Source: a virus. From it: a DNA stretch of 22,241 nt. This document shows positions 3,454 to 19,995 of the stretch, piece after piece (positions within the stretch are counted from its first letter, which is position 1; each line of letters opens with the position of its first letter). The translations under genes were made by a program, and so were the position numbers. The stretch is from UHGV virus genome UHGV-1381228; one strand, 5' to 3'. The notes beneath the pieces were generated by a model that saw only the letters and a list, made by a program, of their open reading frames with translations, ran no database searches and was not told where the DNA came from.

Positions 3454-3993
3454 TTATCGACCGGTTGGAGTGCCAACAGCAGCAGAAATCGGCGCAGCCT
3501 TCTGAGAGAACGGGCTCCACGTTCCGCCGCCCATCTGGTATGCACCGTATGCTTTTAGTGGTGCCGTTAACAAAGTGCTGGTCATCGATGATTTAGCAGC
3601 CGACTGAGCAGCAGCCCCCTGTGCCTGAGCATTCATTCCCTGAACCTGATACCCATATGCCTCACGCTGAGCATTATTCACTGTCGTTAACGCATCAAGA
3701 GTGCCGAACTGAGCATTATCCGCAAAAACGTCAAGAGCTGTTCCGCTACTTAATTCCGCACCGGTAGCCCCCATAGTGGCCGCCGCAGTGCCTGAGCGTT
3801 GACGCATTTCACGACGACGCTGATCCGCTTCAATATTCCCACGATTGATTGAATCCTGTGCCTGAGCTTCAGCAATTTCAGCATTCCGATCAGCTATGGC
3901 TGACTGGTATTTTGCCTGCTTGCTCTGGCTGTACATTGACGCGGCTGTGGATGCCACTGTGACGGCAACCAAAGCGATGGCTGGGTTACACAT
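3454..3993 (-). CDS. virion internal protein with N-terminal hydrophobic segment (179 aa)
   Basis: N-terminus AIALVAVTVASTAA is hydrophobic, followed by a charged coiled-coil-like region; position between tail tube-like gene and large internal protein. Confidence 0.45.
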   Translation of the reverse strand: MCNPAIALVAVTVASTAASMYSQSKQAKYQSAIADRNAEIAEAQAQDSINRGNIEADQRRREMRQRSGTAAATMGATGAELSSGTALDVFADNAQFGTLDALTTVNNAQREAYGYQVQGMNAQAQGAAAQSAAKSSMTSTLLTAPLKAYGAYQMGGGTWSPFSQKAAPISAAVGTPTGR

Positions 3994-10737: not shown

Positions 10738-12413
10738 TGTGATTGCCCACCCTGACCACTAACTGCATTCGCCATAGCTGACAAAACACTCGGATCCGAA
10801 GTTTTAGCTTCGCTTAGCGTCTTGGCACCCTGTGCCGCCGCCATCCCCATCGCCATCATTTGTTGCTGCTGTTGTTGCTGTGCCCGTTGCTGGCGAGCCT
10901 GCTCAACCTGTTCCTGCGGAACAATGACGGTTGGAGACACTCCGGACATATCAGCGAATGCATCGATCGCCTGATCAACGTTGAGTTTGTCGAGAGCTTC
11001 TGGTTTCGCTTGCGCAAGTTGACCAATGAAGTTAACCGTGGACGCCAGACTGGACAGGCCGATAGACTTCTGCGCCTGAGCCATGACGGAAATGTATTCG
11101 ACCTTCAGGGGCATGCCTTCCATCGCGTCAGGCGGTGTCGGCAGCATGTTTTTACGCACCATCATCGAGAAAGCGCGGTCAATGAGAGGATTAAGACATT
11201 CGTCGTTCAGACGCTCCAGAACCGGCCCCAACATCAGAAGTTTTTCTTCTTTCATTTCGATCACCGCTTCAACAGGCATCGAGCGGGTATTGATGTTCTG
11301 CAACATCATGAACAGATCGACAAAGTAGGCGCTGTTAATGATTTGACGGGTGTCCTGAATGTCTGCCACCAAATCTGCTGTACTGGGGTTAACCAGATAA
11401 GCAGGCCTGAAACCATCCTGACCAGTAATCTGATCGATATACGTGATGTCGCCAGGAAGAAGGGAGGCACGCTGATTCTTGAGGGAAGTCGGAGCAACCA
11501 TCGGCGGATTGGTGGCTTTATCAATCAACTGCGACTTGCGCTTCTGGAGAAGCTGCAATGCCTTAACAGGTCCAAGCGCCAGCATACCCGGGCATGATGA
11601 TCCATAAACATCTTCGCCGTTAACTTCCCAGCGCGGAGCCATAATTGGAAACTCATCGAATCCGGACTCACGCAACAACTTGTCGTTATCGCCACCAACC
11701 TCGTAATAAACCGATTTGAATGGCTTGTTCTTGCTATCCAGCTTCGATGTATCGCGGTCAATGTTCGGGTAAACCGAATGCATCACTTCAATCCACTTCT
11801 CGTAGGTGCCGCTTTCCCACATGCTTTTTACGGATTCGCTGACGTTATTTAGCCCGAACTCCTGAACAAGCTGACGAACAGTCATAGAGAACTTGCGAAA
11901 ACAGGTGTCCACACTGCCACGAGGTGAGTTAGCCAGGTAGTAACTGCCTATCGGGAATGGCATTGTGCGAATGATGTCCTCGTCATCCTCCAGCACCGCC
12001 ATTGCACCAGTGCTGTATGTGCCGAGGCTTCCGTATAACTGCGGAAGAGACTGGTAGAGATTCGACTTATTGAACATATCGTTCATGCGGTTCTGAACTG
12101 CCTCAAGCCACAACTTAACAGGGCCATAGTCCATCATTTCAGGATCTGGCGTAGCCAGGCGAAACCACGGACGGGCGGGGCTTGTTATGCCTGACATCAT
12201 GCCGCTGGCAAGAGTGCGCGCCGCCATAGTCCCGGTCGAATCAATAATGCGTGTATTGCGTCGATCGTTACGGTTAACCTCAGAAGTCAGAAAGCGGGAA
12301 CCACGCGGGTTGATGTAATCACTCAACTCGCGCCAGTGCGGCTCGAACGACTGACGCTCGCTTTCAAGTTGTGCGAACTGTTTGTTCAATCGCTCTTTAG
12401 TTGTTTCCGCCAT
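10734..12413 (-). CDS. portal protein (559 aa)
   Basis: 559-aa ORF after terminase; Gln/Met/Ala-rich C-terminal tail (QQRAQQQQQQQMMAMGMAAAQGA) like T7-type portal C-termini; Shine-Dalgarno GGAG 8 nt upstream of ATG. Confidence 0.8.
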   Translation of the reverse strand: MAETTKERLNKQFAQLESERQSFEPHWRELSDYINPRGSRFLTSEVNRNDRRNTRIIDSTGTMAARTLASGMMSGITSPARPWFRLATPDPEMMDYGPVKLWLEAVQNRMNDMFNKSNLYQSLPQLYGSLGTYSTGAMAVLEDDEDIIRTMPFPIGSYYLANSPRGSVDTCFRKFSMTVRQLVQEFGLNNVSESVKSMWESGTYEKWIEVMHSVYPNIDRDTSKLDSKNKPFKSVYYEVGGDNDKLLRESGFDEFPIMAPRWEVNGEDVYGSSCPGMLALGPVKALQLLQKRKSQLIDKATNPPMVAPTSLKNQRASLLPGDITYIDQITGQDGFRPAYLVNPSTADLVADIQDTRQIINSAYFVDLFMMLQNINTRSMPVEAVIEMKEEKLLMLGPVLERLNDECLNPLIDRAFSMMVRKNMLPTPPDAMEGMPLKVEYISVMAQAQKSIGLSSLASTVNFIGQLAQAKPEALDKLNVDQAIDAFADMSGVSPTVIVPQEQVEQARQQRAQQQQQQQMMAMGMAAAQGAKTLSEAKTSDPSVLSAMANAVSGQGGQSQ

Positions 12414-12427
12414 TTCAATGACTCCGG

Positions 12428-12634
12428 TTACTGACCAAGCAGCGTTTTACCGCTGGTATTAGCGGTTGATGTGTCGCCCTGAGAACCGGTAAGCAGCGTA
12501 GAACTACGACCAGCAGCAGCGCGACGGCGACGAGTTTCTTCGTCGCGGGCATCAACAACGGCGGCATCCTGCTCCTGTGGTGCTGCCTGAACTTCTGGTG
12601 TTGCAGGCACTGATGGTGAGCTACCCATGCACAT
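12428..12634 (-). CDS. small hydrophilic protein upstream of portal (68 aa), uncertain
   Basis: ATG preceded by GGAGTCATTGATATG, a near-copy of the portal ribosome-binding region (GGAGTCATTGAAATG); the product is low-complexity, so coding status is uncertain. Confidence 0.3.
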   Translation of the reverse strand: MCMGSSPSVPATPEVQAAPQEQDAAVVDARDEETRRRRAAAGRSSTLLTGSQGDTSTANTSGKTLLGQ

Positions 12635-12724
12635 ATCAATGACTCCGTACGCAATTAAATTATTACCAATTTAACCACATATGATTTATTTATCGTAGGT
12701 AGTTGACATTTAACGCACAAATTA

Positions 12725-12739
12725 TTACCTTTCAGGTAA
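12725..12739. repeat. palindrome TTACCT-TTC-AGGTAA (copy 3 of a recurring motif), about 20 bp downstream of a consensus TTGACA hexamer
   Basis: Perfect 6-bp arms with a 3-nt spacer; the same half-sites occur twice at 19919-19995; TTGACA at about 12703-12708. Confidence 0.5.
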
Positions 12740-13061
12740 CCAAAGAGTTCATTCCGGTTACTAACCTGACTGGCTTGTCGTTAAATTGAACAGGTGGAGT
12801 GAGCTTTTATTTTGAGCAGTACGGCGTATGGCACATGCGCCGATAGCGGTCTGGATACGTTTAAGGGGCACCCTCCCTTGCTCGGGCAAACGAACCAGGT
12901 AGCCGGAATGTGCAAGTCGAGCGGTTTTATTCCGCGCACGGGGATTCACCATCCCGGCGATTCGGTGTGACGCCTCGGAAGAGACGAGGGTACAACGATG
13001 AGAGCATTTATGGAGCCGCGACAAAGTGTGGCGCCTTAACAGGCTAAGTGCTCTCAGCGTT

Positions 13062-13138
13062 GTGGCATTAGCTCAGTTGGACAGAGCAACCGCCTTCTAA
13101 GCGGTTGGTCGCAGGTTCGAATCCTGCATGCCACGCCA
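13062..13138 (+). tRNA. tRNA-Arg (anticodon TCT, reads AGA), 77 nt including encoded CCA
   Basis: Cloverleaf read by hand: acceptor GTGGCAT/ATGCCAC, D-arm GCTC/GAGC, anticodon stem ACCGC/GCGGT with loop CTTCTAA, T-arm GCAGG-TTCGAAT-CCTGC, discriminator G then CCA. Confidence 0.9.
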
Positions 13139-13181
13139 GAATCACGCCTAAGGACCGTGATGCCAGAAGTTCCAGGTGCTT

Positions 13182-13223
13182 GGCGGTGATGGTTTCCCTT
13201 GAAGGACTATCACCGCCCTTTTT
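13182..13223 (+). terminator. intrinsic terminator-like hairpin downstream of the tRNA
   Basis: GGCGGTGAT ... ATCACCGCC 9-bp inverted repeat followed by CTTTTT. Confidence 0.5.
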
Positions 13224-13301
13224 ACAGCAGGACGCCATTGCGATGACTTCATGCTGTAAACCAGTACAGCCACGGAAGGCATAACTCATTGCTTCCAGTT
13301 C

Positions 13302-13326
13302 GCCCGGTTCGTCCGGGCATTTTTTT
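13302..13326 (+). terminator. strong intrinsic terminator (GCCCGG-TTCGT-CCGGGC then TTTTTT)
   Basis: Perfect 6-bp GC stem, 5-nt loop and T6 run; ends 1 nt before the AAGGTG Shine-Dalgarno of the plus-strand ORF. Confidence 0.6.
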
Positions 13327-13338
13327 AAGGTGAAAATC

Positions 13339-13671
13339 ATGAAAGAGAAGACTGCAGCTGAGCGCTATGCCGCAGCTATCAATGCCGCGATGGCGATTGT
13401 AAACCTGCGTGAAGAGATTAAAGATCTCCTTGCAATTATCCATAACAACCTGACATGTACAGAGTTGCTTGGCGGTCAGTACAACGGTGAGGCGGTGAAG
13501 GAGGCATTTAAAAATGCCGAGGTAGGAATAATTCCAGCAAACTATGTCAAGGCTGAATGTGTGCTCCTAAAGGCACGAGTGAGTCTGCATGAAGATCCTG
13601 GTAATCTCGGTCGAACTGCAATGCGTTACGTGATAGACGAGTCGAATGCCAAACACAATCTACCGAAATAA
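13339..13671 (+). CDS. hypothetical protein of unknown function (110 aa), opposite-strand moron-like gene
   Basis: Protein-like ORF on the plus strand between terL and the tRNA; ATG at 13339 with AAGGTG 6 nt upstream (the track start at 13330 is an upstream GTG); no recognisable domain. Confidence 0.55.
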   Translation: MKEKTAAERYAAAINAAMAIVNLREEIKDLLAIIHNNLTCTELLGGQYNGEAVKEAFKNAEVGIIPANYVKAECVLLKARVSLHEDPGNLGRTAMRYVIDESNAKHNLPK

Positions 13672-13675
13672 CACC

Positions 13676-13687
13676 GTGACATGTCAC
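13676..13687. repeat. 12-bp perfect palindrome GTGACATGTCAC (copy 1, downstream of terL)
   Basis: Identical 14-mer CGTGACATGTCACA also present at 15940-15953; the two copies sit on either side of terS-terL. Confidence 0.6.
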
Positions 13688-13761
13688 AAACAGACAGCCT
13701 ATGAGCTGGCTTTGTTTTATCCTCACCAGAGGATATCAACGACATTATCCCCACCAGCGGA

Positions 13762-15237
13762 TTAAGCATAGGGATCGTAATCTGTGATGGCCTTGCCTTG
13801 CTGGTTCTGCTGACCGGGAATTCGCAGACGCTTCGACACAGGGAACGCAAACGTCAGCAGTAGCGCATCGCCTTTACCAGGAGAACGCCCAAGTCGCTCT
13901 TTGATATCTTCCTTCGGTTCGATAACGATTTTACCGTCCACTCGAACTTTGTACTCTGCTGCCGACAGGTCGTCCGCTGTTTCCTGGTCATCCAGCATGC
14001 CGCCCAGCCTCAGCCATGTCTTGCATGAATTGAACATCTCCCCACGCTTGTTGAGCATCTGCGGGTCAGTAGACGCGCCACCGAACGGAACAAGTTGCCA
14101 TGTACGACCCCATCCGTCACCGATTGACTTCAGACCGGTTCCGTAACCGAAGTCGATGAACACCGCGTCAGCCTGATACTGGTCTTCAAAGTCAGCGATA
14201 CGCTTCGCCATAATCAGATCGTCGGTAGTCTTGTTGCCAGTCCACAGCACCTTACTGTGTAGCCCCTGCCGCAGGTATATCACCGCGTCATCAACGCCTG
14301 AATATGCCGGGTCAACACCGATTATCACCGGAGCATGCGCCACCTGCGCAGCGGTTACCACCCGTTTCATTGCCTCATCAGTAAGACCGGTAGGGATAAA
14401 CTGCAATTCAGATGCATCAGGGAATATGCCGCGCACACGGATTTTAACGAAGTCGCTGTCTTCCCCGTAGTCATCAACCCATTTCTGCAACTGCTGTTTG
14501 TTAGTGCCTTCCACCGTTCGGCTGTCAATCTGCGCAGTTTTCCAGCGGTGTTTATATTTGCGGAAACATTCGCGGAAACGTCCGGTATTACGCGTCGGGT
14601 TTCCGAACGCCACCCAGATAATCTCAGTGTCTTCGTCCGTTAGTGCACCCTCGGCAACTTCCCACACCAGATCCGCAATGTTCGACGCTTCATCGAATAC
14701 CACGATGATGCGTTTGCGCTCGTTGTGTAGTCCGGCGAATGCCTCAGTGTTGTGCTCAGACCAGGGGATTGCGTCAGCTCGCCACCGCTTGTCGTGCCCA
14801 GGATCATTGCTGTACATCGCGGTAGCGGTACAGGTAAACCAGTCTTTCGTGATAGCAAGGTTCGACCACTTGATAATTTCCGGCCAGGTCTTCGTTCGTA
14901 GCTGGTTGTCGGTGTTGGCGGTCACCACGACCTTACAATCCTCGCAAGTGGACATGCCCCAGTTGATCAGCATTGAGATGAATGCGGATTTACCAATACC
15001 GTGACCCGAAGCACGTGCCAGCATAAGCGGCTGATAGCGCGTCTCTGGATTCTGCAGGTGATCACGTATCTCTCGGAACGCATCAGCCTGCCACTGACGT
15101 GGGCCGGTAGCATGTGCCAGTTCAGTCCCCTCTTCCCCCCACGGGAACGCATAGAGGGCATAGCCAAGCGGATCGTGAGTGAACCCTGCAATATCCTCGA
15201 TCAACTGCTCTTCAGGAGATAACGCTGTATCTGTCAC
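13762..15237 (-). CDS. terminase large subunit (491 aa)
   Basis: Walker-A-like GHGIGKS near the N-terminus and a C-terminal nuclease-type motif VIIGVDPAYSGVDDAVI; size and position upstream of portal; start overlaps the terS stop (GTGA). Confidence 0.85.
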   Translation of the reverse strand: MTDTALSPEEQLIEDIAGFTHDPLGYALYAFPWGEEGTELAHATGPRQWQADAFREIRDHLQNPETRYQPLMLARASGHGIGKSAFISMLINWGMSTCEDCKVVVTANTDNQLRTKTWPEIIKWSNLAITKDWFTCTATAMYSNDPGHDKRWRADAIPWSEHNTEAFAGLHNERKRIIVVFDEASNIADLVWEVAEGALTDEDTEIIWVAFGNPTRNTGRFRECFRKYKHRWKTAQIDSRTVEGTNKQQLQKWVDDYGEDSDFVKIRVRGIFPDASELQFIPTGLTDEAMKRVVTAAQVAHAPVIIGVDPAYSGVDDAVIYLRQGLHSKVLWTGNKTTDDLIMAKRIADFEDQYQADAVFIDFGYGTGLKSIGDGWGRTWQLVPFGGASTDPQMLNKRGEMFNSCKTWLRLGGMLDDQETADDLSAAEYKVRVDGKIVIEPKEDIKERLGRSPGKGDALLLTFAFPVSKRLRIPGQQNQQGKAITDYDPYA

Positions 15238-15830
15238 TGATTACCATCCTGACGTTCTTTGAGTCGCTTCCTGGCTGCTGCTATGCGATCAGCAATTGTC
15301 ACATTCACATTAACATCCAGACGTTCTTTGAACGCGTTGACATCAACATGCTTACCAATCAGCTCAAGGTTCTTCACCTTGTCAGGCCATTTAATTTTTT
15401 TGAGGATTGTCTCTATCGAATCCTCGTTCATGTTCATGATGGTCGATGACAGATCAAAGCCACTAAGCGTAGTGCGCCAGATTTTCGGCCACTCACGGAT
15501 TGGTTTAAGGCTCCCATCGTCGTTGAGGATGTCGATCACGTCCATCTGGTCGATCTCCACCAGGCGCATGAGAACGTAATCAGCACTGACGCGCATTCGT
15601 TTGTTGCGCTCCTCCATCAACTCGGCAATCCGTTTTTGAATGCGTTCATCGCGCATCATGACACTGGCTTTAACTGCCGCTGTATTTGGGGAGAATCCTG
15701 CGTTAATCGCTGCCTGAGTCTGGTTTTCAGGCGTTTTGATGTATGACTGGCAATAAGCCTCCTGCATTGCTGTTAGTGGCTTAAATTGCGTTGATTTGCG
15801 TTTATAGGTTTTAGGTTCAGCAGGCATCAT
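15234..15830 (-). CDS. terminase small subunit (about 198 aa from ATG at 15830)
   Basis: Gene immediately upstream of and overlapping terL; the track start at 15908 (TTG) would place a terminator hairpin inside the ORF, so the tandem ATG ATG at 15830 (MMPAEPKTYKRK) is preferred. Confidence 0.6.
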   Translation of the reverse strand: MMPAEPKTYKRKSTQFKPLTAMQEAYCQSYIKTPENQTQAAINAGFSPNTAAVKASVMMRDERIQKRIAELMEERNKRMRVSADYVLMRLVEIDQMDVIDILNDDGSLKPIREWPKIWRTTLSGFDLSSTIMNMNEDSIETILKKIKWPDKVKNLELIGKHVDVNAFKERLDVNVNVTIADRIAAARKRLKERQDGNQ

Positions 15831-15872
15831 AACCACCGTGGTAATAGTTACCGTTGTGGTAATAGTACCATG

Positions 15873-15940: not shown

Positions 15941-15952
15941 GTGACATGTCAC
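15941..15952. repeat. 12-bp perfect palindrome GTGACATGTCAC (copy 2, upstream of terS)
   Basis: Identical to 13676-13687; overlaps the stop codon of the 115-aa gene. Confidence 0.6.
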
Positions 15953-19918: not shown

Positions 19919-19933
19919 TTACCTCTAAGGTAA
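19919..19933. repeat. palindrome TTACCT-CTA-AGGTAA (copy 1), overlapping the ribosome-binding site of the 19571..19915 gene
   Basis: Perfect 6-bp arms with a 3-nt spacer; the AGGTAA arm provides the Shine-Dalgarno 5 nt before the ATG at 19915. Confidence 0.6.
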
Positions 19934-19980: not shown

Positions 19981-19995
19981 TTACCTTGTAGGTAA
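19981..19995. repeat. palindrome TTACCT-TGT-AGGTAA (copy 2), 62 bp from copy 1
   Basis: Same half-sites, different spacer; in the intergenic region between the P-like gene and the next operon. Confidence 0.6.

Follow-up and report, generated by a model that had tools for sequence, protein, structure and literature searches.

The DNA analysed here, UHGV virus genome UHGV-1381228 (22,241 nucleotides (nt), referred to at its full length as the window), comes from a Uetakevirus, a temperate podovirus like phiV10 and epsilon15, and carries on its plus strand an open reading frame (ORF) of 110 amino acids (aa) at positions 13339-13671. Our comparisons strongly support the view that the phage carries this ORF as accessory cargo that can be exchanged, in a slot where related phages carry other small genes behind the same Shine-Dalgarno (SD) sequence. 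As to its function, we consider it most likely that the protein represents a previously undescribed family of counter-defence proteins, a reading to which we give slightly better than even credence. Anti-defence is the best supported function because the slot-mates of the ORF include the immune-signal sponges Acb4 and Tad2, and because a distant homologue is encoded near homologues of Lockin and Tad3.

The ORF begins at ATG 13339, ends with TAA at 13669-13671, and encodes a protein of 12.1 kDa with a predicted pI of 6.8. A program-made ORF list begins it at GTG 13330; we took ATG 13339 as the start, which lies 5 nt behind the SD sequence AAGGTGA (13327-13333, plus strand). A first-pass annotation of the window, made by a model from the letters alone, had proposed a 110-aa gene on the strand opposite to its neighbours, and the gene is found as proposed: terS, terL, a 68-aa gene and the portal and capsid genes all lie on the minus strand, while tRNA-Arg, two terminators (T1 and T2), the SD sequence and the 110-aa ORF are plus-strand elements placed between the 68-aa gene and terL. 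The other long plus-strand ORFs examined overlap minus-strand genes. Over positions 12650-13800 the window is 97-98% identical to phiV10, vB_EcoP_ZX5, HEMP4 and the O157 typing phages 9 and 10, with the exception of a central gap. An alignment with phiV10 gives about 98-100% identity for the flanks, which reach up to the SD sequence on one side and resume from the stop codon on the other, and only the body of the ORF differs, the slot of phiV10 being filled by the 123-aa PhiV10p03. Identity with phiV10 stops at the SD sequence, which forms the left border of the exchange slot. The right border is formed by the palindrome GTGACATGTCAC (13676-13687), which begins 4 nt past the stop codon and is found at this same distance in 82 of 102 loci among those listed, whatever the cassette. 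A second exact copy of GTGACATGTCAC is present upstream of terS (15941-15952), and the two copies bracket terS-terL; with at most one mismatch allowed, the window contains three matches versus 0.05 expected.

To describe the occupants of the slot we took advantage of the 21-nt pattern CCGGGCATTTTTTTAAGGTGA, which spans the 3' arm of T2, its T-run and the SD sequence and which retrieved at least 120 further loci from IMG/VR. It should be underlined that the conservation of T2 and SD within this IMG/VR set is by construction of the pattern. Among the about 125 related loci listed, the first ORF past the SD sequence belongs to at least ten unrelated clusters. A PF13876-type protein occupies the slot of 61 loci, and 38 loci contain a modular cluster whose members include Tad2-like proteins (91, 98 and 168 aa), a protein of 140 aa, another of 61 aa that is equivalent to the C-terminal module of the former, and proteins of 123-195 aa sharing that module. 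The 110-aa ORF itself is found in five. Rarer cassettes encode proteins of 143, 138 (predicted membrane protein), 122, 97, 140 and 89 aa, and an HNH endonuclease. The slot flanks are also present in 509 of 5,426 complete Escherichia coli genomes, where most occupants are annotated as 'Gp49 family protein' and two encode the 110-aa ORF.

A low ratio of nonsynonymous to synonymous substitution rates (dN/dS, about 0.1), a length-conserved family and a confident AlphaFold2 model together indicate that the 110-aa ORF is a genuine gene and that purifying selection acts on it. The dN/dS value was 0.11 in comparison with the homologue of locus L058 (87-88% protein identity) and 0.09 in comparison with the copy in a Klebsiella oxytoca prophage (L129, 73% identity), at dS values up to about 2. 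Among 5.8 billion proteins, close relatives form 15 clusters at 90% identity, with E. coli, Pseudocitrobacter and Klebsiella as sources. Eleven of these clusters are 109-110 aa long, at identities down to 61%, and the four exceptions comprise two N-terminally extended members, one internally deleted member (P0012) and one frameshifted member (P0015). With the close-family profile as query, an exhaustive HMMER run gave 45 clusters at 50% identity, nearly all of 100-128 aa and most of them aligning over most of their length, and the family extends to about 25% identity. Y10 and E42 are invariant in the family alignment, while A56, L83 and H84 are nearly so; R9 and K71 are also conserved. The GC content of the ORF is 46.5% versus 53.9% for terL, and a tblastn search did not find the ORF in 50,697 deposited phage genomes. 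The first-pass annotation had suggested that related phages be compared, and had named absence or frameshift in close relatives, with no compensating conservation, among the outcomes that together would speak against the gene. What the comparison shows is exchange of the ORF body only: absence means replacement by another cassette, and where the ORF is present it bears the marks of purifying selection.

The same annotation had seen no recognisable domain in the protein, and the profile and structure searches that it recommended agree, as none of them returned a known relative. There was no Pfam match for the 110-aa protein (at E ≤ 10) or for any of 51 family members (the Pfam copy searched includes the Tad2-like and Tad3 models, with the Lockin model outside it), no NCBIfam match and no match to a PADLOC defence model at E ≤ 1; the sole library match was PHROG 27507, labelled 'unknown function'. 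A sequence search of PDB with the family profile gave matches at chance level only, with neither Tad2 nor the Lockin chain 9p8l among them. AlphaFold2 produced a model with a predicted local distance difference test score (pLDDT) of 95.5 and a predicted template modelling score (pTM) of 0.79 from an alignment of 51 sequences, which superseded a poor model (pLDDT 55) obtained from 16 close sequences. The model predicts a long helix (residues 6-37), two short helices (40-45 and 50-59), three strands (63-67, 71-76 and 79-82) and a final helix (92-102). Foldseek detected no significant fold match to this model in PDB (best E = 2.7), nor did a structure search of BFVD (best E = 0.78), and literature searches for the accession, for the number of the PHROG and for anti-defence in Uetakevirus turned up nothing relevant. 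We regard the protein family as new, having no detectable known relative, and the predicted fold as possibly new. TadIV-1 (T4 vs.3, 92 aa, Straboviridae; PMC13243611) was considered as a relative and rejected, set apart by its reported distribution only: its homologues are numerous in INPHARED, where the 110-aa ORF has no match.

The slot-mates with recognisable relatives point to a role against host immunity. PhiV10p03 matches Pfam PF13876 (6e-35), which is the Acb4 family of sponges for the cyclic dinucleotides of the cyclic oligonucleotide-based antiphage signalling system (CBASS), and all eight of eight Acb4 homologues assayed bound 3'3'-cyclic GMP-AMP (bioRxiv 10.1101/2024.12.30.630793). 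Other slot cassettes match the Pfam 'Tad2-like' model (3e-24 and 5e-22) as well as the solved Tad2 chains 8v3e, 9eib, 8wjd and SPO1 Gp34.65 (1e-12 to 1e-15), and a protein of the Tad2 family DUF2829 stands at the slot position in a Klebsiella phage. Judged by these matches, both characterised families of slot occupants are immune-signal sponges, Acb4 acting against CBASS and Tad2 against Thoeris. Parts of the modular cassettes are themselves combined with Tad2: an N-terminal domain of about 70 aa (MKTxDMLAKYLNEWP...) is fused either to Tad2, giving the 168-aa protein, or to the 61-aa module (...AINAAFDKIT), and the latter also occurs as a stand-alone protein and at the C-terminus of the 123-195-aa proteins. 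Such modular cassettes were seen in L002, L003, L022, L020, L037, L098, L131 and others, and neither the 70-aa domain nor the 61-aa module has a Pfam match. By analogy with the logic of fusion to a known sponge (Tal et al. 2025), the modular cassettes may be seen as further anti-defence candidates.

Homologues outside the slot provide the second association. A family member in a metagenomic phage contig of another kind (P0054, found in L133/L134) was matched to the close-family profile by hhalign with a probability of 95% (E = 2.8e-8, 28% identity over 90 columns), and in a whole-library profile search its E value was 1.5e-4. The product of the gene directly upstream of P0054 has 163 aa and matches the solved Lockin 9p8l (7e-20), and a Tad3 homologue (PF25185, 1.3e-29, over the curated cut-off) is encoded three genes upstream. 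These genes are part of an array of small same-strand genes (L133/L134, 2007-6119) that encode, besides the Tad3 and Lockin homologues and the family member of 110 aa, a DUF5662 protein and one of 94 aa. The array is likely an anti-defence island, and its unannotated members would then be candidates too. Closer relatives keep the 110-aa gene in the Uetakevirus slot, sometimes together with added genes: the K. oxytoca prophage has an extra 84-aa plus-strand gene after the homologue, and in the metagenomic locus L131 the homologue is the third gene of a plus-strand operon, after genes of 76 and 63 aa, the latter of which belongs to the '...AINAAFNKITF' module family.

Compared with the known sponges, the 110-aa protein shows both likenesses and differences. 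Acb4 occupies the same slot in most related phages listed, behind the same terminator and SD sequence and before the same palindrome, and with about 120 aa it is similar in size. The Acb4 monomer has an alpha-beta3-alpha fold resembling the double-stranded RNA-binding domain and forms a tetramer with nucleotide pockets (bioRxiv 10.1101/2024.12.30.630793); the C-terminal half of the 110-aa model has the same predicted order of elements, whereas the long N-terminal helix would be a feature in which the protein differs from Acb4. Unlike Acb4, moreover, the protein has no match to the PF13876 profile, and hhalign against 47 slot Acb4 sequences gave a probability of 0.2%. Tad2 (PF11195/DUF2829) is likewise a small stand-alone phage protein, and in phages of E. 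coli and Klebsiella it can fill the slot instead, but a genuine Tad2 cassette from the slot matches both Pfam and PDB chains, while the 110-aa protein matches neither and is predicted to fold differently. Homologues of Lockin (PF26760) and Tad3 (PF25185) are found near the 28%-identical P0054 in an unrelated phage contig. Lockin, Sequestin (PF21825) and Tad3 are small proteins that were found through their association with known sponges (bioRxiv 10.1101/2025.07.12.664507). Lockin is mostly beta and hexameric, and Sequestin is helical with 60-80 aa; the family profile misses Lockin 9p8l in the PDB search whereas the neighbour gene of P0054 matches it, and the 110-aa protein and the 51 family members are without a Pfam match to Tad3.

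If counter-defence is the function, the protein would block a host immune pathway early in infection or after induction, either by sequestering a nucleotide signal as an oligomeric sponge, in the manner of its slot-mates, or by direct binding of a defence protein. We assign these two modes about equal shares of the credence given to counter-defence, and each of them taken singly is a tentative proposal. A number of observations weigh against a counter-defence function. Its basis is association, i.e. the slot-mates Acb4 and Tad2 and the position of P0054 beside Lockin and Tad3, and the protein has no similarity to Acb4, to the Pfam models searched (including Tad2-like and Tad3) or to the solved Lockin. 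The slot also houses an HNH endonuclease, a predicted membrane protein and several unknowns. The distant members P0057 and P0058 lie in arrays of small unannotated ORFs, one of them adjoining SSB, with no known anti-defence gene nearby, which may be regarded as uninformative. There are also a frameshifted allele (P0015) and one with an internal deletion (P0012). Viral sponges for nucleotide signals are, as a class, homo-oligomers whose enclosed, positively charged pockets bind the immune signal, and the protein is near-neutral (pI 6.8 as a monomer). Finally, two efficient-looking terminators directly upstream speak for low expression unless they are suppressed, and low expression would fit poorly with a sponge that acts stoichiometrically.

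Other functions were weighed on the same evidence. The protein could be cargo that benefits the lysogen, expressed from the prophage as a superinfection exclusion, abortive-infection or defence protein, a toxin or a fitness factor. The phage is temperate and the strand opposite to the late genes is the classical position of a lysogenic-conversion moron, the slot also holds the membrane-protein cassette and other unknowns, and the GC content of the ORF is below that of terL; but no PADLOC defence model matches, and where the slot-mates are characterised they act in counter-defence, to the benefit of the infecting phage, as do the neighbours of the distant homologue. Moreover, the sole promoter candidate overlaps a palindrome labelled as a repressor site (a label that is unconfirmed) and would be silent in a lysogen, and distant homologues lie in small-gene arrays by SSB and recombination genes that resemble early regions. 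We judge lysogen cargo to be an unlikely explanation, and a factor in the phage life cycle outside immunity (host takeover, regulation, handling of the tRNA or leader RNA, or modulation of terminase and packaging) to be somewhat more doubtful still. That the ORF is a decaying or unexpressed remnant is disfavoured and appears highly improbable. Its rarity in E. coli genomes, its absence from the deposited phage records, the terminators directly upstream and the existence of frameshifted and internally deleted alleles would fit such a remnant, but a remnant would hardly show dN/dS of about 0.1 at such high dS, a length kept across the family down to about 25% identity, enough coevolution in the alignment for the confident AlphaFold2 model, and a canonical SD sequence at 5-nt spacing.

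The two terminators ahead of the ORF bear directly on how it is expressed. Tandem intrinsic terminators had been claimed in the first-pass annotation, and both are present on the plus strand, with tRNA-Arg (anticodon UCU, 13062-13138; detected by ARAGORN and by the Rfam tRNA model with 73.3 bits) upstream of both. T1 (13182-13223) lies 44 nt after the tRNA and consists of a 14-bp stem (13182-13217) followed by CTTTTT, with a predicted energy of -23.8 kcal/mol (z = -3.6 versus shuffles). T2 (13302-13326) consists of the hairpin GCCCGG-TTCGT-CCGGGC (13302-13318), as annotated, with a predicted energy of -13.1 kcal/mol (z = -3.3). Its T-run had been given as six T directly after the hairpin, whereas we read seven T after an A; the claimed adjacency to the SD sequence holds, the SD sequence beginning directly at the end of the T-run. 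The distance of about 120 bp between the two was correctly given, T1 being 120 nt upstream of T2. T1 is present in 85 of the 102 loci. Both stems are kept by compensatory substitution in Salmonella and Klebsiella relatives: the T1 stem is GATGG/CTATC in the window versus GGCAG/CTGACC elsewhere, and the T2 stem is GCCCGG/CCGGGC in the window versus GCCCAC/GTGGGC in SPN1S and epsilon15. The epsilon15 record marks T2 as a rho-independent terminator before its own plus-strand ORF. Between 12400 and 13900 there are four terminator-like sites versus 1.5 ± 1.3 in shuffles. With a G+C-rich stem, a U-run and compensated stem changes, T1 and T2 have the sequence hallmarks of rho-independent terminators. 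They are one-directional, each hairpin having an A-run ahead of it on the minus strand, and one role of the pair could be to shield terL from antisense transcription.

The most plausible start for transcription of the ORF is a promoter-like site, TTGACA-N17-TACCTT, read from the sequence at 12703-12731 (plus strand) at the head of the plus-strand unit. A consensus scan of 12400-13900 found no sigma-70-type promoter on either strand, the 12703 site falling below the threshold, but this site is kept in Klebsiella, Salmonella and K. oxytoca relatives and in 99 of the 102 loci. In L131 the promoter region stands directly before the three-gene cargo operon, which is without the structured RNA described below, the tRNA, T1 and T2, and it is mainly for this reason that we take the same promoter to feed the slot in the window. 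Overlapping the -10 element is the palindrome TTACCTTTCAGGTAA (12725-12739), of the form TTACC-N5-GGTAA, which occurs in five copies in the window versus 0.29 expected. The other copies lie just upstream of terS (15830-15844 and 15848-15862) and in the interval that separates replication gene P from a DUF1064 gene (19919-19933 and 19981-19995). Each copy heads a gene block, the one at 12725 heading both the plus-strand unit and the 68-aa and portal genes, and two overlap the SD sequence of the downstream minus-strand gene. The equivalent palindrome site is labelled 'repressor, lysogeny' in the epsilon15 record, a label that is unconfirmed, and the 12725 copy is a possible operator. The ORF looks like the distal part of a larger plus-strand unit that also yields the structured RNA and the tRNA, and it would probably be transcribed as the last gene of this unit, from the 12703 site through the structured leader RNA, tRNA-Arg, T1 and T2. 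Transcripts starting at 12703 have to cross both terminators, and expression of the cargo would hinge on their read-through, be it mere leakage or an actively promoted process, or on their suppression.

Alternatively, the ORF could be a self-contained moron with a promoter of its own, situated in the block that lies between T1 and T2 or overlapping T2; T1 and T2 would then end just the tRNA/RNA unit or a small RNA. The block in question, TTTACAGCAGGACGCCATTGCGATGACTTCATGCTGTAAACC (13221-13262, 42 nt), contains the inverted repeat TTTACAGCA-N21-TGCTGTAAA and hardly changes among 71 distinct variants or from genus to genus; in phages of E. coli, Klebsiella and Salmonella it is better conserved than its surroundings. 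It contains TTTACA, a 5/6 match to the -35 hexamer, and the region from the tail of T1 to T2 could be a small RNA ending at T2, given a weak, sub-threshold RyhB-like Rfam match at 13271-13326. Neither the consensus scan nor reading by eye revealed an acceptable sigma-70 hexamer pair in the block on either strand, with no acceptable -10 at 16-18 nt, and any start upstream of T2 must still cross T2. Furthermore, the block is missing from L131, where the homologue follows the far-upstream promoter, and the variant L109 is without the 38 nt between the block and T2. An own promoter appears improbable on these grounds, and transcription from the 12703 site remains the reading that we prefer. A 13-codon leader peptide (ATG 13244) was also considered within this region and rejected, its frame being lost in SPN1S.

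Between the promoter-like site and tRNA-Arg lies a candidate structured leader RNA of about 240 nt (12822-13060, plus strand), which has no Rfam match even at E ≤ 10. Its homologues were found in 92 phage records, comprising Uetakeviruses, lambdoid phages (just downstream of cI; cdtI), Stx2 phages, P1-like phages including P1/P7 (where trnI and ban flank it), and phages of Klebsiella and Stenotrophomonas. The 27 variants have invariant blocks common to all, with hairpins of variable length between them. The RNAalifold consensus contains 39 pairs with 98.9% of cells paired, and 11 of the 39 pairs show compensatory changes versus 4.9 ± 1.2 in column shuffles (none of 500 reached 11) and 0-2 in slid controls. 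This covariation supports the view that the region is a structured RNA. The RNA may be likened to the put antiterminator of HK022 by analogy only: as a put-type element it was rejected, since there was no sequence similarity apart from a lone 14-nt match inside the nun coding sequence. GCUCUC at the 3' end of the RNA was likewise rejected as a boxA, as it covaries as a stem with GAGAGC.

The classical definition of a moron, after Hendrix and Juhala, includes a promoter of its own; a terminator immediately downstream is a further mark, and the one candidate here is a weak hairpin at 13695-13718. Like a moron, the 110-aa ORF is an added gene that some relatives have and others do not, its neighbours are conserved, it is read from the opposite strand, and its GC content is different. 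It is unlike a moron in that no own promoter was found in the scan of 12400-13900, in that terminators precede the ORF and do not only follow it, and in that a conserved RNA/tRNA transcription unit ends variably with it, its borders being fixed to the nucleotide. Of the moron cargo with exclusion, toxin or anti-defence function that the first-pass annotation had proposed, the accessory cargo has held and anti-defence is the best supported of the functions, by association, while the scan of 12400-13900 did not find the promoter that belongs to the concept.

The phage sponges Acb4, Tad2, Lockin and Sequestin were discovered by screening or by the logic of fusion and neighbourhood. Genes for anti-defence or accessory functions in phage hot spots are a known kind; what is new here is the family and possibly the fold. 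The slot gives a clean lead, as it holds one ORF between fixed borders and has two characterised anti-immunity families as its usual occupants, and it puts forward the 110-aa family, together with about eight further cassette families that lack annotation, as candidates against the immune systems of E. coli and Klebsiella. If the protein is active, it would represent a fold without a solved relative. In addition, a testable question of regulation arises from the position of a cargo gene immediately behind two terminators and a structured RNA that are all conserved. A bolder proposal, which we put forward tentatively and would sooner doubt than accept, is that the 110-aa family is a new counter-defence class with a novel fold and that the slot is a dedicated plug-in site for single anti-defence ORFs, gated by RNA-controlled terminator read-through. 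Such a site would consist of promoter/operator, structured RNA, tRNA or tRNA-like element, T1, conserved block, T2, SD sequence, ORF and palindrome, and if this were true, the other eight or so unannotated cassette families of the slot would also be anti-defence proteins.

Some minor features of the region should also be mentioned. A weak hairpin of 4-5 bp with T-rich tails on both strands (13695-13718) separates the cargo ORF from the 3' end of terL; the terminator scan picked it up as a minus-strand site, its predicted energies (-8.4 and -8.1 kcal/mol) are no better than those of shuffles, the phiV10 record gives it as a putative terminator, and it is a possible bidirectional terminator. A 90-aa ORF with an ATG start (13068-13340, minus strand) lies antisense to the tRNA, T1 and T2 and is annotated in phiV10 (PhiV10p04) and SPN1S (SPN1S_0004). 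Its frame is broken in relatives by indels that are not multiples of three; we rejected it as a gene, and it is almost certainly spurious. With regard to the tRNA position, tRNA-Arg is replaced by another element of about 100-230 nt in some relatives, among them two carriers of the 110-aa ORF, E. coli BCE049 (L004, about 11714-11940) and K. oxytoca (L129, about 3700-3790). The replacement element was not recognised as a tRNA by ARAGORN or as a member of an Rfam family, and it retains the GTTGTGG...CCAC ends of the tRNA acceptor stem. In epsilon15 (L140, 1500-1580) the core of the structured RNA, the tRNA and the 5' half of T1 are missing, and the 5' part of the RNA is joined to the 3' half of T1 within GTTCCCTTGATGCT, a motif common to a variable hairpin of the RNA and the loop of T1; this suggests that the deletion arose by recombination between GTTCCCTTGATGCT copies.

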